Shown: positions 1 through 17,279 of the stretch, piece by piece | How the letters are laid out: every line of letters begins with the position of its first letter | Position numbering within the stretch: position 1 is the stretch's first letter | Source of the DNA: an uncultured Treponema sp. | Lineage (GTDB): Bacteria; Spirochaetota; Spirochaetia; Treponematales; Treponemataceae | Reading direction: 5' to 3' | Assembly (NCBI GenBank): GCA_946547845.1 | Contig: CAMNPJ010000001.1 | Location: 18,985-82,984, forward strand | DNA: 64,000 nucleotides | Notes under the pieces: generated by a model | The model's database searches: none | What the model was told of the DNA's origin: nothing | What the model saw: the letters and a program-made list of their open reading frames with translations, nothing else | Translations under genes and position numbers: made by a program

Positions 1-1619
1 GCATAGACGGAACGGACATCATCGTGAACAAGACCCGTGCCTGCGACCATGGCACAAACAGCATCTGGTACAATGCGTTCATCGCCTGCCAGGTCGCGGT
101 CGCATCCTATCGGACCAGATGCCCCGTCAAGCTGGTCTACACACGAGAGGAGCAGCAGAAATACATGGACTGCATGCAGCCCATCACCATCAGCCACCGG
201 ACGGCGCTCTCGCGGGAAGGCAAGCTGCTCGCCCTGCAGGTGGGCATAGAAGTGAATGCCGGCAGCTCCAACGTCTTTATCCGCGAGATAATCGACCGGC
301 TTGCGATTGCGGCGACGGGGTGCTATGACGCAGAGAACGTGAGCATAACATCGAGCGCGTTCTATTCCCGCAACCCGCCATCCTCCATCGACCAGCAGCT
401 CATAGATTCAGCTGCCTTCTTTGCCATAGAGAACCAGATGAACAAACTCTGCGGCAGCAGCGGCTTTACCCCGGCGGAAATCAGGCTGCTCAACCTTACA
501 GAAGGGGAGTACAGCGCGCGGAACGCCCCGCTCGTGCTTCTGCCAAAGGCAAAGGAGACAATCGACGCTATCATCGCACGGAGCGACTTTAACAGGAAAT
601 ACGCGTCCTACCACCTTGACAATATCACGAGAATGCGGCAGAAAGGCAAGGAGACGCAGATAATCTCCTACCTGACGCCGCTCCGGGGAATCGGATTTGC
701 CTGCGGTTACGAAGGCTCCTGCTATTACGGCTCGGAAGTCTTCAGCAGCGACCAGTCGCTCACCGTGACCATGCAGGCAGACGGCACCATCGTCATACAG
801 AGCCCCCCGATTTCCCGTTCCATCCAGGAGATATGGAGCAAACTCGCGTCCTCCATCTTGGGAATCACCCAGTCGTCGGTATCGATTGACTCGCACTTTG
901 ATGCAGGCAACGAGCCGCTGCTGCCGGAAGGTGTCTATTCGAATATCAGCATCATGACGCAGCTGCTGAAAAAATGCTGCGAGAGCCTGAAGAAGCGCAA
1001 GCCCGACACAAAGCTACCCTTCTCCGTAAAGAAAAAGCTTTCCGCCGCCCAAAAAAAGGCATGGGATTCCGCGGAATTTGAGGGCACCCCCTTCCACAGC
1101 TGCTCCTTTGCGGCCGCCACCATAGAAGTGGAGCTTGACCCCTGCACGTTCCGTGAGAAAATCAGGGAAATCAACATCATCATCAACGGAGGAAAAATCC
1201 TCAACTCCACGGCCGCGGAGAGCAACATAAAGCTGGCGGTTCAGCGCGTCCTCACGTCGCTCGTGGAGGAAGACAGCGTCGAATGCAACAACATCAAAAT
1301 CGCATTCATGCAGTCCGAGGAAAACCCCACGCAAATCGGGGAGCTTGTCTACCAGGTGCTTCCCGCCGCATACACGGAAGCTCTGTCGCAGGCGCTCGGC
1401 TGCACGGTAAGCACCCTGCCGATGCAAAGCAACAGCCTGTACAAGCTGCTGCAGGAAAAAGAGGCGTCGGAGCAAAAACAGTCAAAGAAACAGAGCACTC
1501 CGCCCGCTCAGACAGCCGCGGCAACAGCGAATGCGGATGCACAGGCAGCATCGGACGCGCAGCCTGAGCCGGAGAAGACAGAGGAGGCAGCACACCATGA
1601 TGATACCGGTAACGCTTAA
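1..1619 (+). CDS. xanthine dehydrogenase/aldehyde oxidase-family molybdopterin-binding subunit, C-terminal part (5' end upstream of window)
   Basis: Frame is open from base 3 (IDGTDIIVNKT...), so track ORF 24..1619 is a truncation. RCPVKLVYTREEQ segment and overall layout resemble the large Mo subunit. Followed by the two partner subunit genes. Q/A-rich low-complexity tail. Confidence 0.65.
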   Translation, partial: IDGTDIIVNKTRACDHGTNSIWYNAFIACQVAVASYRTRCPVKLVYTREEQQKYMDCMQPITISHRTALSREGKLLALQVGIEVNAGSSNVFIREIIDRLAIAATGCYDAENVSITSSAFYSRNPPSSIDQQLIDSAAFFAIENQMNKLCGSSGFTPAEIRLLNLTEGEYSARNAPLVLLPKAKETIDAIIARSDFNRKYASYHLDNITRMRQKGKETQIISYLTPLRGIGFACGYEGSCYYGSEVFSSDQSLTVTMQADGTIVIQSPPISRSIQEIWSKLASSILGITQSSVSIDSHFDAGNEPLLPEGVYSNISIMTQLLKKCCESLKKRKPDTKLPFSVKKKLSAAQKKAWDSAEFEGTPFHSCSFAAATIEVELDPCTFREKIREINIIINGGKILNSTAAESNIKLAVQRVLTSLVEEDSVECNNIKIAFMQSEENPTQIGELVYQVLPAAYTEALSQALGCTVSTLPMQSNSLYKLLQEKEASEQKQSKKQSTPPAQTAAATANADAQAASDAQPEPEKTEEAAHHDDTGNA

Positions 1620-9083: not shown

Positions 9084-11546
9084 CTAGTCCTTTTTGTTCA
9101 GGTTCTTGAACATGTCCTTGACGTTCACGCTGTCAAGCACCTTTCCGGCGGCATCCGCAGCGGCATTCGACAGCTCGTTGTCGCCGAGGGCACCCTGAAT
9201 CTGCTTGCGTGACTCCTCCTTGGCAATATCCTTCAGACGCTGCTCGGCTTCGGCATATTTTTTCTCCAGGATATCCTGCACATCGGAAATCTTGACATTC
9301 TGCAGCTCTATATCGCCCTCTATGCCAAGGAACTGCTTTGCCTGTGCGAGATAGCCGTTGGATGCGTCGTTTACCTGCTCGTTCAGAATCCTGAACGCGG
9401 CCTCCTTGGCATCGTTGCCGAGGCTCCTTACGATGGCGTCAAAGGCCTTTGCGAACTGGTCGGCAAAATTGCCGTTCAGCGCAAGGTTCACTCCGCTCCC
9501 CTTCGTGTAGCCCGCCGTGTAGCCTACAACCATGTCCTTGACGGTATCCAGCGCCTGGCGGTAGTACTTCGTCACGAATTCGTTCTCGAAGCCGTCCGTC
9601 GTGAGCACCAGCTTCTGCAAATCCACGCTGCCGCTGAGCGCCAGTTTGTCTTGTTCCAGCGAGCAGCTCAGGGCGATGTCCGCATTGCCCGTGAGGGACG
9701 GAACGCCGCTGCGGGTGGCGATTTTTGTGCCGTCCACGGCAAGGCTGAAGCCGCTGCCGTCGTAGTCCGCAGTAATCAGGGGCGCGGTGCTGGCAGCGCG
9801 GATGTCCATCACGGCCTGAACCGCATGCATCATGCCGTTGTCAGAGAGCCTGGCGCTCAGGGAAGTCGTCCTGCCGCGGGCATTCTGGTCGTTCGTCAGC
9901 TCCGTAGCAAGCGCCTCGAAGCTCCTGCCGGCAAGCTCACCCGAAACGAACATGCGCTCAATCAGTACGGTGGGGTTCTGCCCCGTATACCAGTATGTCG
10001 TGCCCTTCATGCGCTCGCGCGTAGCGGCCGGCTTCTTTTTTTCCGGCTGGGCGGCAGTAAGCTGGGACAACTTGGCGGACTCCTCCTTGAGCTTCTCCAC
10101 ATAGTCCGTCACCTGCCTGACGTATGGATAGTACTTGCCGAGCATATTATAGCCGACGGTGTCAAGCGCGTCGTTAAACAGCAGATTCGCGTTCTTTACG
10201 GCGTTCACCACACCGGTCAGCTTTGCCTGCATCAAATCCTTGTCCGCCGTGACGGCATCGGTCACGGACAGCGTGAGTTTCTTTACCGCGAGCCCGTCAT
10301 CCGTCACTTCGGCGGTGAGCGCCTCCGCAGACTGCTTGATTCCCTTGCTCTTCTCGATGGCATCCTTGAGCTTCGCGATGGCGTCCTGCAGCACCTGCGG
10401 ATCGGAAATCTTGGAAAAGTCGATGGTCTGCAAGTTCTTTACGCTGCCGCTAAAGTCCTCGACCTGCGCCTTTATCTCCTCAGGTTTGCCCTGCCACTTG
10501 GTAAAGAGATTCTGCACGTCCCCGACGGCTGCCTGCGCCACCTCCGGGGATTTGAGCTGGGAGCGGATGTTAGCGACAATGGTCTCCACGTCACCGCCAC
10601 CGAGCATGTCAGTCGCCATCATCTTGAGGTCGTCAAGAGCCTGCGTGCTCTTGCTCTGCAGGCTCAGCATGAATTCGCTGTCAGCGAGGGAAGCATTCTC
10701 CGCCTTCGGCTTCTGCGGTTTTTCCGGGAGCTCGCAGCTTTCCGTCCTGTCGGTGTTCAGGGCAAGCCCGGACAGCTCAAGGTTCCGCACGTCAAGCTTG
10801 CCCCGCAAGGCCTGCGCAAGGTTGAAGCTCAGCTCAATCTTCTCAGCCTCCGCAAGATTCTTCATCACGCTGTTCTTGTTGCCCACCGCGATATTGCGGA
10901 CGGTAAGCGTGCCGCCGAGTATGCTCAGCCGCACGGAGCCGACATCGGTCTTGGCGCCGGCGGCAGCCTCGCAGCCCATGACAATCGCTTTTTTTGCGAG
11001 CGGGTTCTTGAAGGCGGAAATGACGAGCGCGAGCAGCACGAATACCGCGATGACCGCGGCAAAGGGAAGCAGCCGCACGCGTCCCTTCCTGCTGCGGATC
11101 TCGCCCACCAGCTGCTTGTATTTCTTGAGCTCCTTTTTGGAAAAGAGGAGCTCTGCGGGAACGGCATAGCGCTCAGGTTTCTTTGCGTTCGCGCCCTGCA
11201 CGAAAATCCGTGAAAGCAGCTCCCTGTCGCTGGGAATGACGATAGGCCGCAGGATTTTCTTTGCGAGCTGCCGCTCGGTATAGGTCTTTTTCAGCATGCC
11301 CGGCAGCTTCTTGCGCGGGAACTTCCTGCGGAGATCCTCAGGATTCTCGGCCTCCTGCGGCAGCCCGGACGGCTGGGACTCAGCGGGCGCCGGGACAAGT
11401 TCTTCTGCCGGGACAAGTTCTTCTGCCGGGACAAGTTCTTCTGCCGGGGCAAGCTCTTCTGCCGGGGCAAGTTCTTCTGCCGGAATCTGCCCTTCCGCCC
11501 CTTCAGGAACAGACGCTACGTTTTTTTCTTCTTCGAGTTCTGCCAT
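9084..11546 (-). CDS. large membrane-anchored protein, TIGR03545-like (from memory, unverified)
   Basis: 820 aa. Acidic N-terminus with five PAEEL(A/V) repeats, one TM helix (LLPFAAVIAVFVLLALVISAF), long non-repetitive C-terminal region. Paired with a DUF2062-like gene directly upstream. Confidence 0.55.
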   Translation of the reverse strand: MAELEEEKNVASVPEGAEGQIPAEELAPAEELAPAEELVPAEELVPAEELVPAPAESQPSGLPQEAENPEDLRRKFPRKKLPGMLKKTYTERQLAKKILRPIVIPSDRELLSRIFVQGANAKKPERYAVPAELLFSKKELKKYKQLVGEIRSRKGRVRLLPFAAVIAVFVLLALVISAFKNPLAKKAIVMGCEAAAGAKTDVGSVRLSILGGTLTVRNIAVGNKNSVMKNLAEAEKIELSFNLAQALRGKLDVRNLELSGLALNTDRTESCELPEKPQKPKAENASLADSEFMLSLQSKSTQALDDLKMMATDMLGGGDVETIVANIRSQLKSPEVAQAAVGDVQNLFTKWQGKPEEIKAQVEDFSGSVKNLQTIDFSKISDPQVLQDAIAKLKDAIEKSKGIKQSAEALTAEVTDDGLAVKKLTLSVTDAVTADKDLMQAKLTGVVNAVKNANLLFNDALDTVGYNMLGKYYPYVRQVTDYVEKLKEESAKLSQLTAAQPEKKKPAATRERMKGTTYWYTGQNPTVLIERMFVSGELAGRSFEALATELTNDQNARGRTTSLSARLSDNGMMHAVQAVMDIRAASTAPLITADYDGSGFSLAVDGTKIATRSGVPSLTGNADIALSCSLEQDKLALSGSVDLQKLVLTTDGFENEFVTKYYRQALDTVKDMVVGYTAGYTKGSGVNLALNGNFADQFAKAFDAIVRSLGNDAKEAAFRILNEQVNDASNGYLAQAKQFLGIEGDIELQNVKISDVQDILEKKYAEAEQRLKDIAKEESRKQIQGALGDNELSNAAADAAGKVLDSVNVKDMFKNLNKKD
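11392..11481 (-). repeat. five in-frame 18-bp tandem repeats encoding PAEEL(A/V)
   Basis: Plus-strand units gggacaagttcttctgcc x3, then ggggcaagctcttctgcc and ggggcaagttcttctgcc. Confidence 0.9.
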
Positions 11547-12195: not shown

Positions 12196-13440
12196 CTAGC
12201 GGAGCACGACGCGGCAGAATTTCTTCTTGCCGGCCTTCACCACAAATTCCCCGTCAGAGTCGGCGTCTTTCAGGCTCACAACAGCCTTTACGTCGCTTAT
12301 GGCGGCGCCGTTCACGCTTGCGCCGCCCTGCTGCACGAGGCGCCGCGCGTCAGACTTGGTGGCGCAGAGCTTTGTGCTGAAGTAGAGGTCGCAGACATTC
12401 ATGCCTGCCTCAAAATCCGCGCGGGCAAGCTCCACGGTCGGCATGGAAGCCTTGTCGCCAGCGCCGCCGAACGCAGCCTTCGCCCCGCTCAGCGCCTTCT
12501 CCGCCTCGTCCTTACCGTGGATTTCCTTGGTCACCTCGTAGGCAAGGCGCTCCTTGGCCGCATTCACGTCGCCCTGCATAATCTGGTCAATCTCGCCCAC
12601 AGGCAGGAAGGTGAACAGCAGCAGGAACTTGCGCACGTCCGCGTCGGCAACATTGCGCCAGTACTGGAAGAAATCAAAGACGCTCGTCATCGCCGGGTCA
12701 AGGAAGACCGCGCCCTTCTCCGTCTTACCCATCTTCTTGCCGTCCGCGCGGGTGATGAGCGGGAAGGTCAGCCCGAAAACCTCATGCTCCTTGTTCAGCT
12801 CCGTGGTGCCGCCCAGCTTGCGCCGGATAAGGTCGACGCCCGCGGTGATGTTGCCCCACTGGTCGTCGCCGCCAATCTGCAGGACGCAGTTGTGCCGCTG
12901 GTGCAGCATGTAGAAGTCGTAGGCCTGCAGCAGCTGGTAGTTGAATTCTATAAAAGAAAGCCCCCGCTCAAGGCGCTGCTTGTACGCCTCAAAGGTGAGC
13001 ATGCGGTTCACGGAGAAGCAGGAGCCGATATCGCGCAGGAAATCGATGTAGTTCAGCCCAGCGAGCCAGTCCTTGTTGTTGTCGCTGAAGGCGCTTTTCC
13101 CGTCAAAGCCGATAAAGCGGTCAAGCTGGGCCTTTATGCGCTCCACGTTGGCGTCAATCTGCTCGTAGGAAATCATCTTGCGCATCTCGGTCTTTCCGCT
13201 GGGATCGCCGATACGCGCCGTGCCGCCGCCGATAAGGGCAATGCCGTGGTGCCCGGCATCGCGCAGGTGCCGCAGGGCAAAGAACGGCACCATGTGCCCG
13301 ATGTGCAGGCTGGGGCCGGTGGGGTCGCAGCCGACATAGAACGTGACGGGGCCTTCATCCATCTTGCGGGACAGTCCGTCGACGTCGGTGCACTGGGCAA
13401 AAAATCCGCGTTCCTTCAGGGTTTCCAGAGCTTTGTTCAT
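12196..13440 (-). CDS. tyrS: tyrosine--tRNA ligase
   Basis: HIGH motif (LHIGH), KMGKT (KMSKS-type), C-terminal S4-like domain. ATG 13440 preceded by AGAGGTG (the track ORF opens at GTG 13446). Confidence 0.9.
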   Translation of the reverse strand: MNKALETLKERGFFAQCTDVDGLSRKMDEGPVTFYVGCDPTGPSLHIGHMVPFFALRHLRDAGHHGIALIGGGTARIGDPSGKTEMRKMISYEQIDANVERIKAQLDRFIGFDGKSAFSDNNKDWLAGLNYIDFLRDIGSCFSVNRMLTFEAYKQRLERGLSFIEFNYQLLQAYDFYMLHQRHNCVLQIGGDDQWGNITAGVDLIRRKLGGTTELNKEHEVFGLTFPLITRADGKKMGKTEKGAVFLDPAMTSVFDFFQYWRNVADADVRKFLLLFTFLPVGEIDQIMQGDVNAAKERLAYEVTKEIHGKDEAEKALSGAKAAFGGAGDKASMPTVELARADFEAGMNVCDLYFSTKLCATKSDARRLVQQGGASVNGAAISDVKAVVSLKDADSDGEFVVKAGKKKFCRVVLR

Positions 13441-13454
13441 AATCACACCTCTTT

Positions 13455-13493
13455 AAAAAAATAAAAAGGGAACCTCCCTCACGGAAGGTTCCC
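13455..13493 (-). terminator. intrinsic terminator (attenuator) 14 nt upstream of the tyrS ATG
   Basis: Minus strand GGGAACCUUCC-GUGA-GGGAGGUUCCC followed by UUUUAUUUUUUU. Confidence 0.7.
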
Positions 13494-13524
13494 GCTGATT
13501 GCACATTAAGGGCAAACGCTAGCA

Positions 13525-13635
13525 CTACCGGGCAGAGCCGTTCTTCCGCAGGCACAGAGACAACGCATAGCCATAATAGAGGTATGCCAGCGATGAGTCA
13601 TTGATTTGTACCGCCCAACTGCGAGTGTCCGTCAT
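13525..13635 (-). CDS. candidate tyrS leader peptide (36 aa, Tyr-codon cluster)
   Basis: My translation: MTDTRSWAVQINDSSLAYLYYGYALSLCLRKNGSAR-stop. Four Tyr codons (TAC TAT TAT TAT) lie within six positions. Sits between a promoter-like site and an intrinsic terminator just upstream of tyrS. Confidence 0.35.
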   Translation of the reverse strand: MTDTRSWAVQINDSSLAYLYYGYALSLCLRKNGSAR

Positions 13636-13644
13636 AGTGCCCCC

Positions 13645-13674
13645 ATCCTAGCACAGAGCGCCGTCCCCTGTCAA
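13645..13674 (-). promoter_or_regulatory. sigma-70-type promoter TTGACA-N18-TAGGAT for the tyrS leader
   Basis: Minus strand TTGACAggggacggcgctctgtgcTAGGAT. The leader-ORF ATG lies 9 nt after the -10, so the leader is near-leaderless or a promoter further upstream is used. Confidence 0.4.
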
Positions 13675-13792
13675 TGCCCCGGAATGCGCCCATGGATGCA
13701 GCATGAAAAACAAGCGGAAGGGGGGGGGCGGATTCCCGCCGTGAACGCATTCTTGCGTTTCATGCAGGAGCTCTGAGGGCAGGGCAGATTCC

Positions 13793-14617
13793 TCAGCGCA
13801 GGCGAGCGCCGGGGATGGTACGCCGCGCGGCAGCGACAAGCCGCTGCATATCGCTGTCACTGTACGGCGGCAGCGCATCGAAGGCGGGGTCAAGGCAGCC
13901 GCCGCCACGGAACGGGGAAAAATACCACTGCGCGTCGCAGGGCAGCAGGGCTGCGGCAGCCTCAATATCCCTTTCCCCGACCAATCCCGGCACCAGCACC
14001 GTGCGCCATTCGCGGCAGTCCGGCTCATACTCGCGGGCAAGCAGGGCGGCGGATTCCCGCAGCGCGGCAGCAAGGGCGGCGCCGTCCGGAGCCACAGCCG
14101 TGCCCGCGGCTGCCGGGAATTGTGACGGCGGCTGCACGGAGCCTCCGGGACGGGGAACAAGCTCCGCATAGCGCTGCGGCGCGGTCTTTATATCCATGGC
14201 GACATAATCAGGCCGCAGCTCCGCAGAAGCGCAGAACTGCTCCAGCAGGCGCGGCAGGGTGCCGTTGGTATCGAGCTTTATCTTATATCCGAGAGAGCGG
14301 GCGGCGCGGATAAGCTGCGGGGTCAGCGGGTTCAGCAGCGGCTCCCCGCCGGAGATGACCAGAGCGCTGAGCACGTTGCGGCGTTTTGCAAGGTGGGAAA
14401 GTATGTCCCCGGCACCTACAAAGCCTTCTCCGCCGCCATCCGGCAGGACAAGGGCGCGGTTGTAGCAGTAGGGGCAGCGCAGGTTGCAGCCCCGCAGGAA
14501 TACTGCGGCGGCAAGCCTGCCGGGATAATCGGCAAGGGTCGTGCGGACGAGCGTACCCGCCGCATCCTCCGGAAAGGGCTCAGGCAATCGCCTTGGAGCC
14601 GGAACCGAGCACGGCAT
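13793..14617 (-). CDS. nrdG: anaerobic ribonucleoside-triphosphate reductase activating protein (radical SAM)
   Basis: CNLRCPYCYN (CxxxCxxC), ISGGEPLL, KLDTNG motifs. Start uncertain: ATGs at 14632/14626/14617 or TTG 14587, all overlapping the upstream gene end. Confidence 0.8.
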   Translation of the reverse strand: MPCSVPAPRRLPEPFPEDAAGTLVRTTLADYPGRLAAAVFLRGCNLRCPYCYNRALVLPDGGGEGFVGAGDILSHLAKRRNVLSALVISGGEPLLNPLTPQLIRAARSLGYKIKLDTNGTLPRLLEQFCASAELRPDYVAMDIKTAPQRYAELVPRPGGSVQPPSQFPAAAGTAVAPDGAALAAALRESAALLAREYEPDCREWRTVLVPGLVGERDIEAAAALLPCDAQWYFSPFRGGGCLDPAFDALPPYSDSDMQRLVAAARRTIPGARLR

Positions 14618-15128
14618 CGAGCTCATCGGCATTATGGGCACGAGCGGTCTCCTGCCCGTCCGCATTGTAGAAGATGACGGTCGGCGTGGCAAAGACCCCG
14701 CGCTCGGCGGCAAGGTCAAGCCCTTCCTTCTGATCCACATTTATCTCCGTGCCGGACAGGGAAGAAGCCGCCATATAATCGCGCACCGGCGGACAGTGCG
14801 GGCAGCCGGGGCGCGTGAACAGCTCGTAGCGGGCAAGCGCCGCGGAAAAGCTTTTTGCGCCGGGCGCCGCAGCCACTGCGACGGCGGCATCCTGCACGGC
14901 AGCGGTATCAGGCACCGCAGCATCGTGGGCGGCAGAAAACGAACTGATATCGAACATAGTCCTCCTGCGGAATTCGTCAAGCTTGCCCTTGTTCCAGTTC
15001 TGCACGGCGCGGTAATAGCCCACAATACGCGCGTACACCTCAGTCTCGTCGCCGTGCACATCCGCAAGCTCTGCCTTCACCGCCTGGATTTCGGCGTCGA
15101 TATCTGCGATTGTCCGTGATTTTTCCAT
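14580..15128 (-). CDS. stand-alone NrdD glycyl-radical module fused to a thioredoxin-fold (CPHC) domain
   Basis: ETEVYARIVGYYRAVQNWNKGKLDEFRRR is the sequence that normally ends single-chain NrdD. C-terminal YELFTRPGCPHCPPV...GVFATPTVIFY fits a thioredoxin/glutaredoxin-like fold. Own RBS AAGAGAGG. Confidence 0.7.
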   Translation of the reverse strand: MEKSRTIADIDAEIQAVKAELADVHGDETEVYARIVGYYRAVQNWNKGKLDEFRRRTMFDISSFSAAHDAAVPDTAAVQDAAVAVAAAPGAKSFSAALARYELFTRPGCPHCPPVRDYMAASSLSGTEINVDQKEGLDLAAERGVFATPTVIFYNADGQETARAHNADELDAVLGSGSKAIA

Positions 15129-15158
15129 ACTATATTATGCCTCTCTTTGCCAAATTGC

Positions 15159-17279
15159 CTATGCCTTTGCGGCGAGCAGCGACGCCCGCTCCGACTCCAG
15201 CGCAAGGAGCCGTGCCCGCAGGCGCTGCTCCTTCTCTGCACGGCACTTGGGGCACTCGAACTGGGCGCCCGGCAGGTAGCCGTGCTTCTTGCAGACCGAA
15301 TAGGTCGGGCTGACGGTCACATACGGAATGCGGTAATGCTCCACGATAGCCTTCACAAGGTCGCGGCACGCACGCCAGTCCTCTATCTGCTCCCCGACAA
15401 AGGTATGGAACACCGTGCCGCCGGTGTAGCGCACCTGCAGCGCCTCCTGATGGTCGAGCGCATCAAAGAGATCCGCCGTATAGTCCACGGGGAGCTGGGT
15501 GCTGTTCGTGTAGAAAGGAGCGTCCGTTCCGCCCGTGATGATGCCGGGGAAATTCTCCTTGTCGTGGCGGGCCAGGCGGTAGCTCGTGCTTTCGGCCGGG
15601 GTCGCCTCAAGGTTGAACAGCTCCCCGGTCTTCTCCTGATAGTCCTGCATCCGCGCGCGCATATAGTCAAGCACGTCGCAGGCAAACTGCCTCCCCCGCC
15701 CGTCGGCAATGGAGACGCCGAGGAAATTCAGGCAGCATTCGTTCATGCCGCACAGGCCGATTGTGTTGAAGTGGTTGTCAAGCGTCTTCAGGTAGCGCTT
15801 TGTGTAGGGGAACAGCCCTCCGTCCAGCAGTTTCTGGATAACCTTGCGCTTGATGCAGAGGCTTTCCTTCGCGATGTCCATCAGATGGTCAAGCCGGGCG
15901 TAGAAATCCTTCTCGTCGCGCGCAAGAAAGCCAATCTGCGGAAGGTTTATGGTAACGACACCAAGGCTGCCGGTAAACTCATCGGAACCGAAAAGCCCGC
16001 CGCCGCGTTTGCGCAGCTCGCGCTTGTCAAGCCGCAGGCGGCAGCACATGGAGCGCACGTCGGAGGGGTTCAGGTCGGAATTGACGAAATTCTGGAAATA
16101 GGGAGTGCCATACTGCGCCGTCATCCTGAACAGCAGCTGGGCGTTCCGGCTGTTCCAGTCAAAGTCCTTCGTGATGTTGTAGGTGGGAATCGGATAGCCG
16201 AAGCCGCGACCGGACGCGTCGCCCTCAAGCATAAGCTCGATGAAGATGCGGTTTATCGTGTCCATCTCCGGCTGGCAGTCTCCGTAAGTGAACGCCTGCT
16301 CCTTGCCGCCCACCACGGCCTTCTCGTCCCGCAGGTCGGCGGGGCATGTCCAGTCCAACGTGATGTTCGTGAACGGAGCCTGCGAGCCCCAGCGGCTCGG
16401 CGTGTTTATGCCGAAGATAAAGCACTGCAGGCACTGGCGCACCTCGTCGTCGTCCAGGCGGTCTGCCCTGACAAACGGCGCAAGGCAGGTATCAAAAGAG
16501 GAGAACGCCTGCGCGCCCGCCCATTCGTTCTGCAGCACGCCCAGGAAATTCACCATCTGGTTCACCAGCGTGGAAAGGTGCGCCGCCGGCTTTGAGGATA
16601 TTTTGTCCGGCACCCCGCCGAGCCCTTCGCGGATAAGCTGCCTGAGCGACCAGCCCGCGCAGTAGCCGGAGAACATGGACAAATCGTGTATGTGGATGGC
16701 ACAGTCCTCGTGCGCCTTTGCGATTTCCGCGGGGTAGATGTTCCTGAGCCAGTAGTTTGCCGTCACGGTGCCGGAATTGTGCAGGATAAGCCCGCCGAGC
16801 GAATAGTTGACATTGGCGTTCTCGTTCACGCGCCAGTCGCTCTGCCGCAGGTAACCGTCCATCGTCTTGGATATATCAATCATCAGGGCGCGGGCATCCC
16901 GCATGGCATCGTGGCGGGCACGGTACAGGATATACGCCTTGGCGGTCTCCACCTCGCGGTTCTCCATGAGCACCGTCTCCACCGTGTCCTGAATCTCCTC
17001 TATGGCGGGAATCGAATGGGCGCGGCGACCCGCAAGCAGCACCCGCAGCCGCTCCTCCACCAGGTCGGTCAGAGCGCCCGCCTTGTCCGGGTCGGGATGG
17101 GAGCAGGTGGCGGCAAGCGCCTTGCCGATGGCGCGCTCAATCTTTGTGCGGTCATAATCCGCGATGTCACCGGAGCGTTTGACCACCTTCTTTATGAAGC
17201 CCTCGGTCTCCTTGTCACTGCTGGTTCCCAGAAAGCTCCGCCATTCCGGGAACACATTCTGCTCCTGCCCCCCGCTCAC
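15159..17279 (-). CDS. nrdD: anaerobic ribonucleoside-triphosphate reductase, large piece lacking the glycyl-radical loop
   Basis: ATP-cone N-terminus, MCCRLRLD finger-loop motif, C-terminal CKKHGY...CPKC Zn site, then a helical tail and TAG. GTG start overlaps the nrdR stop (GTGA). Confidence 0.9.
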   Translation of the reverse strand: MSGGQEQNVFPEWRSFLGTSSDKETEGFIKKVVKRSGDIADYDRTKIERAIGKALAATCSHPDPDKAGALTDLVEERLRVLLAGRRAHSIPAIEEIQDTVETVLMENREVETAKAYILYRARHDAMRDARALMIDISKTMDGYLRQSDWRVNENANVNYSLGGLILHNSGTVTANYWLRNIYPAEIAKAHEDCAIHIHDLSMFSGYCAGWSLRQLIREGLGGVPDKISSKPAAHLSTLVNQMVNFLGVLQNEWAGAQAFSSFDTCLAPFVRADRLDDDEVRQCLQCFIFGINTPSRWGSQAPFTNITLDWTCPADLRDEKAVVGGKEQAFTYGDCQPEMDTINRIFIELMLEGDASGRGFGYPIPTYNITKDFDWNSRNAQLLFRMTAQYGTPYFQNFVNSDLNPSDVRSMCCRLRLDKRELRKRGGGLFGSDEFTGSLGVVTINLPQIGFLARDEKDFYARLDHLMDIAKESLCIKRKVIQKLLDGGLFPYTKRYLKTLDNHFNTIGLCGMNECCLNFLGVSIADGRGRQFACDVLDYMRARMQDYQEKTGELFNLEATPAESTSYRLARHDKENFPGIITGGTDAPFYTNSTQLPVDYTADLFDALDHQEALQVRYTGGTVFHTFVGEQIEDWRACRDLVKAIVEHYRIPYVTVSPTYSVCKKHGYLPGAQFECPKCRAEKEQRLRARLLALESERASLLAAKA

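Follow-up and report, generated by a model that had tools for sequence, protein, structure and literature searches.

A conserved tyrosine-codon leader upstream of tyrS in Treponema as a probable ribosome-mediated transcription attenuator

The stretch analyzed here (the window) comprises 64,000 nucleotides (nt) of contig CAMNPJ010000001.1 from an uncultured Treponema sp., and the element under study is a short leader directly upstream of the tyrosyl-tRNA synthetase gene tyrS, all on the minus strand. The tyrS gene (12196..13440) encodes a protein of 414 amino acids (aa) with the Pfam domains tRNA-synt_1b (3.8e-82) and SYY_C-terminal, which was 75-85% identical to Treponema TyrS proteins in genome records and 95-97% identical to those of two metagenome contigs. 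An earlier note made from the sequence alone had described a promoter, a 36-codon open reading frame (ORF) and a terminator spaced in front of tyrS, and all of them were present where it had placed them. The sigma-70-type promoter-like site (13645..13674) consisted of TTGACA (13674-13669), an 18-nt spacer and a TG-extended TAGGAT (13650-13645), matched the consensus at 10/12 positions and ended, with its -10 box, 9 nt before the leader ATG. The leader ORF (13525..13635) started with ATG at 13635, ended with TAG at 13527-13525 after 36 codons, and was translated as MTDTRSWAVQINDSSLAYLYYGYALSLCLRKNGSAR. Codons 7-22 (13570..13617) encoded the block W-A-V-Q-I-N-D-S-S-L-A-Y-L-Y-Y-G, which was conserved at the amino-acid level. 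The four Tyr codons reported in the earlier note (13567..13584) were confirmed as Y18 TAC (13584-13582), Y20 TAT (13578-13576), Y21 TAT (13575-13573) and Y23 TAT (13569-13567), that is, 4 Tyr within 6 codons.

Farther along the ORF lay region 2, the putative 5' strand of an anti-terminator (UGCGGAAG, 13543..13550), which could be paired with 13487..13480; the C of its CGG was 21 nt from the stop codon. A spacer (13494..13542) holding the ORF stop codon and two predicted local hairpins separated region 2 from an intrinsic terminator (13455..13493), which began 31 nt past the ORF stop. The terminator was composed of a hairpin (13493..13468) and a U-run (13467..13455; TTTTTATTTTTTT in DNA, UUUUUAUUUUUUU in RNA). 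Its stem of 11 pairs, 7 of them G-C, was formed by the 5' arm GGGAACCUUCC (13493-13483), containing region 3 (CUUCCGUG, 13487-13480), and the 3' arm GGGAGGUUCCC (13478-13468) around the loop GUGA, which in DNA form reads GGGAACCTTCC-GTGA-GGGAGGTTCCC. The predicted energy was -22.4 kcal/mol in a wider fold and -20.3 kcal/mol for the bare hairpin. The terminator ended 14 nt before the tyrS ATG (13440), and this gap contained the Shine-Dalgarno-like AAGAGG of tyrS (13453-13448), outside the terminator; no promoter-like site was found in these 14 nt.

The occurrence of the leader was evaluated in an unbiased set of tyrS loci from 80 species-level Treponema/Spirochaetaceae genomes, with TyrS proteins 75-85% identical to that of the window. 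A homologous leader directly upstream of tyrS could be found in 13/80 related loci; in the remaining ones, tyrS was preceded by a promoter alone or by an upstream region of another kind. The 13 leaders all combined a consensus promoter, whose -10 box was followed by the ATG at 6-10 nt (6 nt in L050), with an ORF of 27-35 codons, a GCGGA-type box and a terminator 5' arm with CUUCCG or CUUUCCG. The encoded peptides aligned as M-x5-W-A-V-x-I-N-x-S-T-L-A-Y-L-Y-Y-G and diverged completely afterwards. The conservation of the small ORF, its Tyr cluster and the terminator in related tyrS leaders, which the earlier note had proposed as a check, was thus borne out within this Treponema family. A second copy of the leader was present neither in the 64-kb window nor elsewhere in the 80 tyrS loci.

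A word-indexed peptide profile search of 5.8 billion proteins revealed six predicted proteins matching the leader profile (P0001-P0006; E 3e-12 to 6e-7), and P0044 and P0045 came from an exhaustive search over 1.84 billion cluster representatives, giving 8 predicted proteins of the family in total. P0007, a profile match with E = 9.8, was probably a chance match, and P0043 and similar long repetitive proteins were rejected as leaders, being low-complexity repeats that matched 'INxSTLAY'. When a 41-bit DNA pattern derived from the leader was scanned against metagenome contigs, 63 were matched, all of which were true leaders (63/63, no false positive). The TGG of the pattern was located 18 nt after a start codon in 63/63 matches (62 ATG, 1 TTG), and the ORF, where complete, was 27-39 codons long; because of this conservation, the leader is not a chance feature. 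Clustering at 92% identity reduced the set to 38 non-redundant leaders, which together with P0044 and P0045 made 40 distinct leaders, representing some 90 Treponema loci. The leader contigs could be assigned to Treponema or Spirochaetia by the source names given for their DAHP synthase and IF-1 proteins. As judged from these comparisons, the element is real, conserved and cis-regulatory.

The consensus peptide of the family was M-x5-W-A-x2-I-N-x-S-T-L-A-Y-L-Y-Y-G, and the distance from the start codon to the LAYLY block was 15 codons in all leaders except L050 (14). Y18 and Y20 were invariant, Y21 was usually Tyr and Y23 was lineage-specific; the conserved Tyr codons are therefore three of the four found in the window (Y18, Y20 and Y21). 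At the first regulatory Tyr codon and the Leu codon following it (together 13584-13579 in the window), the Tyr codon was always UAC across the family, while the later Tyr codons were UAU or UAC. The Leu codon was CUY in nearly all leaders, and was replaced by UUU (Phe) in P0044 and P0045.

Analysis of codon substitutions revealed a coding signature in the 5' half of the leader. Pairwise codon differences in codons 7-22 comprised 215 synonymous and 289 non-synonymous changes (43% synonymous), and those in the flanking codons comprised 43 synonymous and 465 non-synonymous changes (8.5% synonymous). The entropy at codon positions 1, 2 and 3 of codons 7-22 was 0.55, 0.42 and 0.85, respectively, with the greatest variability at position 3 (Wilcoxon p = 0.018); the third-position variation was seen as GCN at Ala8 and Ala17, ATH at Ile11, TCN at Ser14, YTG at Leu16 and TAY at Tyr20. 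The leader frame was open in every copy, and stop codons were present in the other two frames of nearly all copies. For the interval from the ATG to the GCGGA box (region 2), RNAalifold returned an empty structure. RNA structure was rejected as the cause of the conservation of codons 7-22 owing to this empty structure and to the synonymous substitutions. Since the substitutions are largely synonymous in the absence of an RNA structure, selection on residues 7-22 acts at the amino-acid level. By its substitution pattern, then, the 5' half of the leader evolves as a protein-coding sequence, and residues 7-22 are under purifying selection.

The gene downstream of the leader was always tyrS, of two types, or an operon of DAHP synthase and prephenate dehydrogenase. 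The two leader-linked TyrS types, that of the window and a second type, were only 35% identical to each other, and the second-type tyrS was often arranged as infA - leader - tyrS. The DAHP synthase in the leader operon carried an FXD regulatory domain, and the prephenate dehydrogenase gene was followed by AzlCD or a phosphoribosyltransferase. The genes upstream of the leader were unrelated between loci: the neighbor was nrdG in the window, whereas infA, OmpA or an HD-domain protein, among others, took this place at other loci. That the terminator belongs to the preceding nrdG gene was rejected, since a promoter intervenes and the upstream neighbor varies while the downstream gene is constant. 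A leader placed before two TyrS types and before the enzymes that open aromatic and tyrosine synthesis would fit a tyrosine-responsive cis-regulator.

The codons following the conserved L-A-Y-L-Y differed between the two classes of target. The tyrS leaders continued with Y-S-Y-D-F, Y-G-Y and similar sequences, and the DAHP synthase leaders read LAYLYFSFYWFS, LAYLYYGFYWFSFSF, LAYLYVGFFAF, LAYLYYGYYWFS, LAYFYFSFYGFS and LAYFYVGFYWFS. The number of Phe and Trp codons in residues 18-30 averaged 3.9 in the DAHP synthase leaders (n = 8) versus 0.94 in the tyrS leaders (n = 32; Mann-Whitney p = 7e-6), and the Tyr mean was about 3.2 in both. Under the logic of hungry codons, an operon of the common pathway would respond to all three aromatic amino acids, and a synthetase gene only to its own.

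The gain of Phe and Trp codons in the DAHP synthase leaders is a pattern that an RNA-only sensor would not produce. Such a sensor, T-box-like or a riboswitch, would respond to tRNA-Tyr or a metabolite, the ORF being incidental. It is suggested by the control of tyrS in Firmicutes, where this gene is a classic target of the T-box, which binds uncharged tRNA directly and requires no translation, and also by the invariant UAC in the leader and by several stretches of conserved RNA that follow the ORF and precede the terminator. However, comparison with Rfam at E <= 10 revealed no T-box in window 13300-13900, where only two meaningless sub-threshold matches were obtained, and at E <= 1 neither a T-box nor anything relevant was obtained from eight homologous loci. 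Five further related loci also gave nothing relevant, and the whole window at the gathering threshold gave tRNA only. The exclusion of a T-box or other Rfam match, another check named in the earlier note, therefore stands. A BjrC1505 match overlapping the L091 leader (32 bits versus a gathering threshold of 50) was most likely its terminator. Moreover, no structure is predicted for the 5' half of the leader, whose substitutions are those of a coding sequence, its frame is kept open in every copy with stop codons in the other two frames of nearly all, and added Phe and Trp codons would be needless for a single-specifier RNA. An RNA-only sensor is thus considered highly improbable.

The residues W7, A8, I11, N12, S14, L16 and A17, together with the 15-codon spacing, were common to the tyrS and DAHP synthase leaders, and W7 preceded the Tyr codons by 11-14 residues. 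In TnaC (W12 to P24) and SecM, a critical Trp at similar spacing contacts the constriction of the exit tunnel. This likeness leads to a possible, although tentative, explanation by nascent-peptide-assisted arrest, in which W7-A8-x-x-I11-N12-x-S14-x-L16-A17 in the exit tunnel would slow or sensitize the decoding of the following Tyr (Phe, Trp) codons, or would sense a ligand, the RNA switch downstream remaining unchanged. The spacing of W7 is consistent with it, as are amino-acid-level selection on residues 7-22 and not on residues 2-6 or from 23 onward, a conservation for which no RNA structure accounts, a start codon fixed 15 codons before L16 except in L050, and a block unchanged between the two leader classes. 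On the other hand, the leader peptide had no match in Pfam or NCBIfam and no similarity to PDB chains, nascent chains included (best PDB E = 0.5, an unrelated glycosidase). The number and kind of aromatic codons track the regulated pathway, which codon reading already explains, and stalls induced by free tyrosine would give the wrong sign for biosynthetic genes. The conservation could also have other causes, such as a need for stable peptidyl-tRNA in the stalled ribosome or an independent role of the peptide. With similar reserve, the N-terminal module x6-W-A-x2-I-N-x-S-T-L-A, invariant in length, might be regarded as a new arrest or sensitizer peptide that, acting within the exit tunnel, makes the peptidyl-transferase or decoding center of the ribosome hypersensitive to the supply of aromatic aminoacyl-tRNA and defines an 'aromatic ribulon' of Treponema. 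If the sensitizer explanation were true, the terminator could be flipped by as few as two or three hungry codons in a leaderless mRNA. An 'aromatic ribulon', if true, would place tyrS, DAHP synthase and prephenate dehydrogenase under one portable peptide-and-RNA cassette.

The promoter and the start codon of the leader were closely spaced in most of the family. In 27/38 non-redundant leaders, the -10 box of a TTGACA-16..19-TAnnnT promoter was separated from the ATG by 5-10 nt, and no Shine-Dalgarno sequence was present; apart from three with other spacings, these promoters had a spacer of 17 or 18 nt, and TG extensions were frequent. With so short a distance, leaderless or near-leaderless translation is probable, and the mRNA of these leaders probably begins at or close to the ATG. 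About 10 others were found behind infA, their ORF starting 20-30 nt after its stop codon and preceded by an AGGA Shine-Dalgarno-like sequence. The retention of one ORF under two initiation modes argues that the ORF is translated. Mapped transcripts of another spirochaete, Borrelia burgdorferi, include 5' untranslated regions (UTRs) of <10 nt, some of zero length (PMC5314773), and no transcription start-site data for Treponema were found in the literature searched.

A hairpin followed by a U-run was found in every leader with enough 3' sequence. The stem sequences varied, and the apical 5' arm was always CUUCC(G); hairpin energies across the family ranged from -10.7 to -20.3 kcal/mol, and wider folded windows reached down to -23. 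The anti-terminator box, (U)(G/A)CGGAA(G/A), was located inside the ORF near its 3' end. The earlier note had paired GCGGAAG (13549..13543) with CUUCCGU (13487..13481) in the window; the two are complementary, and the same pairing was kept and covaried across the Treponema leaders.

The CGG/CCG register could be assigned in 32 leaders, and the geometry was determined for these. Region 2 started 39-45 nt past the L16 codon in 31/32 of them and 63 nt past it in L093, and the stop codon was located -3 to +27 nt past the C of CGG, at <=20 nt in 28/32; the longer stop distances were 21 nt in the window and L112 and 27 nt in L101, with exactly 20 nt in L092. Region 2 began about 25 nt past Y21, which by geometry alone is clear of a stalled ribosome. 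When a ribosome was assumed on the Tyr codons and the 3' arm was left unmade, RNAfold produced the region 2:3 helix in 12/13 leaders. The in-register anti-terminator helix was 5-12 base pairs (bp) long and extended into the terminator loop; this loop, a partner of the anti-terminator box, is without function in the terminator as such. Examples are L081 (UUUGCGGAA:UUCCGCAAA), L128 (UUUUACGGAA:UUCCGUAAAA) and L141 (CCUGCGGAA:UUCCGCAGG).

Covariation was counted over an 8-bp core in 36 leaders, with the partner slid by 1-3 columns and 500 shuffles as controls. In the anti-terminator core, 88.5% of cells were paired compared to 33-53% with a slid partner. Changes on both sides were seen in 21 cells, at four pairs, versus 8.5 +/- 3.2 in shuffles (0/500 reached the observed value), and the covariation score was 0.231 versus 0.145 (0/500), in a register set by the authors and with a shuffle significance that sequence relatedness may inflate. 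At position -1, the pairs were G-C in 16 leaders, A-U in 8 and G-U in 7, and A opposite C never occurred; at position -2, U-A was found in 25, and A-U, C-G and G-C also occurred. Compensation could be seen where CGG/CCG had changed, as in L122 (ACGGAGGU:ACCUUCGU), L088 (GGAAGCU:GGCUUCC) and L135 (GGAAGGCU:AGUCUUCC). The mean duplex energy was -13.7 kcal/mol with the cognate arm, -12.0 kcal/mol with the arm of another leader (permutation p < 2e-4) and -8.3 kcal/mol with shuffled arms, and the cognate duplexes were similar in energy to the terminators. The tyrS leaders with LAYLYCS (L085-L087, L120 and L124) had Cys in place of Tyr at position 21 and had lost the G of CCG in the terminator arm (CUUCCA), so that an anti-terminator of only 5 bp is left; the attenuator of this lineage may be weakened or retuned.

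That a box within the ORF covaries with the 5' arm and loop of the terminator also bears on the possibility that the ORF encodes a functional small protein, in which case the hairpin would be its terminator, tyrS would be expressed through leaky read-through or from another promoter, and no sensing would take place. The amino-acid-level conservation of the peptide core and its annotation as a protein in several assemblies are in line with this. However, a small protein of this kind would not account for that covariation, and the C-terminal third of the ORF is unconserved in sequence and length (27-39 aa in total). Irrespective of what precedes it, the ORF is confined to the position immediately in front of tyrS or of DAHP synthase and prephenate dehydrogenase, and in the window the 14 nt between the terminator and tyrS are devoid of a promoter-like site. 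The small-protein explanation is accordingly judged very unlikely.

The interval between the box and the terminator contained two hairpins in most leaders, one of them with the stop codon in or beside its loop and the second (GUGUUUUAC...GGUAAUUACA) ahead of the terminator; the window version is a single-sequence prediction. The modeled anti-terminator helix would enclose both hairpins as a junction. Leaders of the second TyrS clade offer a further possible pairing, of UUACC with GGUAA of the hairpin preceding the terminator. A 1:2 protector or pause hairpin was not found, as RNAalifold returned no structure and local folds had a mean z of +0.37 compared to shuffles. A conserved UUCUCU tract between the Tyr codons and the box was considered as part of such a hairpin and rejected, with no consensus structure and shuffle-like folds. 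The protector hairpin is a feature of the trp paradigm and is not required of the attenuator class as a whole. The whole-leader minimum free energy in the window had a z of only -1.43, a single-sequence fold being uninformative for a switch.

Taken together, the anatomy, conservation, coding signature, anti-terminator covariation and gene association make it quite likely that the leader is a ribosome-mediated leader-peptide transcription attenuator reporting the supply of charged tRNA-Tyr. From these features we infer its start site, leaderless initiation, stalling, direction of switching and tyrosine dependence as follows. Transcription would begin at the TTGACA/TAGGAT promoter, at or a few nt before the leader AUG, and a ribosome would load on the 5'-terminal AUG and trail RNA polymerase. 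With ample Tyr-tRNA, the ribosome would pass codons 18-23 and cross region 2, or pause at the neighboring stop codon; region 2 would be masked as the 5' arm emerges, region 3 would pair with region 4, and the terminator would form before tyrS. With scarce Tyr-tRNA, the ribosome would stall at codons 18, 20 and 21 with its front edge about 12 nt or more upstream of region 2. The free region 2 would then pair with region 3 and the terminator loop, no terminator would form, and the polymerase would read into tyrS. The operon of DAHP synthase and prephenate dehydrogenase would be under the same module, and its extra Phe and Trp codons would make the response multivalent. The sign of regulation would be physiologically correct for both target classes. 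The proposal of the earlier note that ribosomes stall at the Tyr codons of this leader is supported by the comparative data, to which the family adds the conservation of the peptide past the Tyr codons, a probably leaderless mRNA and the absence of a 1:2 protector hairpin.

Several observations weigh against the attenuator, in addition to the author-set register and the sequence relatedness given with the covariation counts. The stop codon of the window leader is 21 nt past region 2, so that a terminating ribosome would abut rather than cover region 2; masking by a terminating ribosome is thus marginal in the window and would need transit or steric exclusion. In the three-region design, the lack of a protector hairpin predicts that an untranslated leader reads through, unlike in E. 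coli trp. L085 and L120 retain only a 5-bp GGAAG:CUUCC anti-terminator, together with Cys at position 21. Further, a hungry-codon mechanism neither needs nor explains the strong conservation of residues 7-17.

Other upstream regions of tyrS were also observed among the 80 loci. Neither the Treponema berlinense-type group (L023, L036, L042 and L064, about 110 nt upstream of tyrS) nor a second group (L024, L029 and L072, about 150 nt upstream of tyrS) had a Tyr leader. Both groups had their own conserved G+C-rich, hairpin-forming regions without a U-run, such as GGCGGCAAAGCCGTTCC...AAAAAGCCGCC and GGAGCGCGTAAGTCGCGGAACTGCGGAAAGCC...AAAAGGGGTACGCCC, which gave no family match in Rfam and may represent a different, undescribed regulator of tyrS. 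In L024 (131-217), a unit of ~105 nt was tandemly duplicated upstream of tyrS, with a near-identical copy about 100 nt upstream, and showed a weak sub-threshold match to Rfam TD-1 (27.8 bits versus a gathering threshold of 64.5). Tandem repeats of ~22 nt were located directly upstream of the leader promoter in L009 (about 2650-2760; CACTGCGCAAA(C/G)CG(G/A)T(A/T)AAAT(T/G)) and in L011 (about 670-790; GGCCACTGGATTTTGTGAGTTT).

Upstream of the leader in the window (13793-17279, minus strand), an anaerobic ribonucleotide reductase cluster could be identified with an NrdD-like ORF of 706 aa, a 182-aa ORF consisting of an NrdD C-terminal fragment and a glutaredoxin/thioredoxin-like domain and overlapping the next gene, and, as the third gene, a radical-SAM activase, for which the ORF list gives 315 aa from the first ATG. 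In the interval separating the end of the activase gene from the promoter of the leader (13712-13745, minus strand), a small hairpin (GGCGGGAATCCGCC) was followed by nine C and then TTCCGCTTGTTTTT. This hairpin may be the terminator of the nrd operon, and the homopolymer C run is a potential slippage site. Downstream of tyrS, the N-terminus of an 820-aa ORF (9084..11546) contained PAEEL(A/V) pentapeptide repeats (AEELAPAEELAPAEELVPAEELVPAEELVP; window 11290-11480, minus strand), whose DNA is a 15-nt tandem repeat giving long spurious ORFs in other frames.

No description of this element, whether Tyr-specific or spirochaetal, was found in the literature searched, which did not cover Lopatovskaya et al. 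2010 (Mol Biol 44:128). If the attenuator is true, it would be the first tyrosine-specific leader-peptide attenuator as far as the searched libraries and literature show, and the first amino-acid-sensing attenuator described in spirochaetes, a phylum with barely charted cis-regulatory RNA. One cassette would wire a synthetase gene and a biosynthetic operon into a ribosome-read regulon with the codon content tuned for each target, and its conserved peptide and leaderless start would offer a compact system for nascent-chain tuning of hungry-codon sensing. The family is open to immediate annotation in many Treponema genomes from rumen and gut, in which gene calling has mostly missed the ORF.

The leaders of E. 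coli trpL, hisL, pheL and pheST are classical ribosome-mediated attenuators. The Treponema leader resembles them in its ORF with cognate codons, the terminator before the gene, the anti-terminator sharing the terminator 5' arm and the decision by ribosome position, and it resembles pheST in targeting an aminoacyl-tRNA synthetase gene. It differs from them in being tyrosine-specific, spirochaetal (Spirochaetota), free of a 1:2 protector hairpin and probably leaderless, and in the placement of region 2 within the ORF, ahead of its stop codon. Whereas classical leaders are little conserved beyond the regulatory codons, a 16-residue peptide block is conserved in Treponema, and one leader family serves a small regulon of tyrS and of DAHP synthase and prephenate dehydrogenase. 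Attenuators of synthetase genes have also been predicted for Streptomyces trpS and leuS (PMC1262725). With the tyrS T-box of Firmicutes, the leader would share the gene, the increase of TyrRS at low charged tRNA-Tyr and the terminator/anti-terminator output; the sensing part, unlike that of a T-box, would be a translated ORF, and no T-box match was obtained, so that tyrS control in Treponema would use mini-ORF translation where Firmicutes use a T-box.

In the mycobacterial 'Cys ribulon', ribosomes stalled on leaderless poly-cysteine short ORFs are reported to unmask a sequestered ribosome-binding site (RBS) (Canestrari et al., bioRxiv 10.1101/834739). By that account, the probably leaderless short ORF as first cistron, the codon run as sensor and the several operons of the same pathway are alike. 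Unlike the translational output by RBS unmasking described there, the output in Treponema would be an intrinsic terminator versus an anti-terminator: the terminator is canonical with a U-run, and the tyrS Shine-Dalgarno sequence (13453-13448) is located outside it. The Treponema peptide is conserved also outside the regulatory codons. In TnaC and SpeFL, a free amino acid is bound, the stall takes place at the stop codon, and Rho is blocked. The Treponema leader is similar to TnaC, SecM and SpeFL as a short conserved upstream ORF with a Trp 11-14 residues before the putative stall and an output on termination downstream. Unlike in TnaC and SpeFL, the stall would be expected at sense Tyr codons under starvation and would act on an intrinsic terminator, and there is no sequence similarity between the peptides. 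On the whole, the leader very probably represents a ribosome-read tyrosine sensor that had not been described before.

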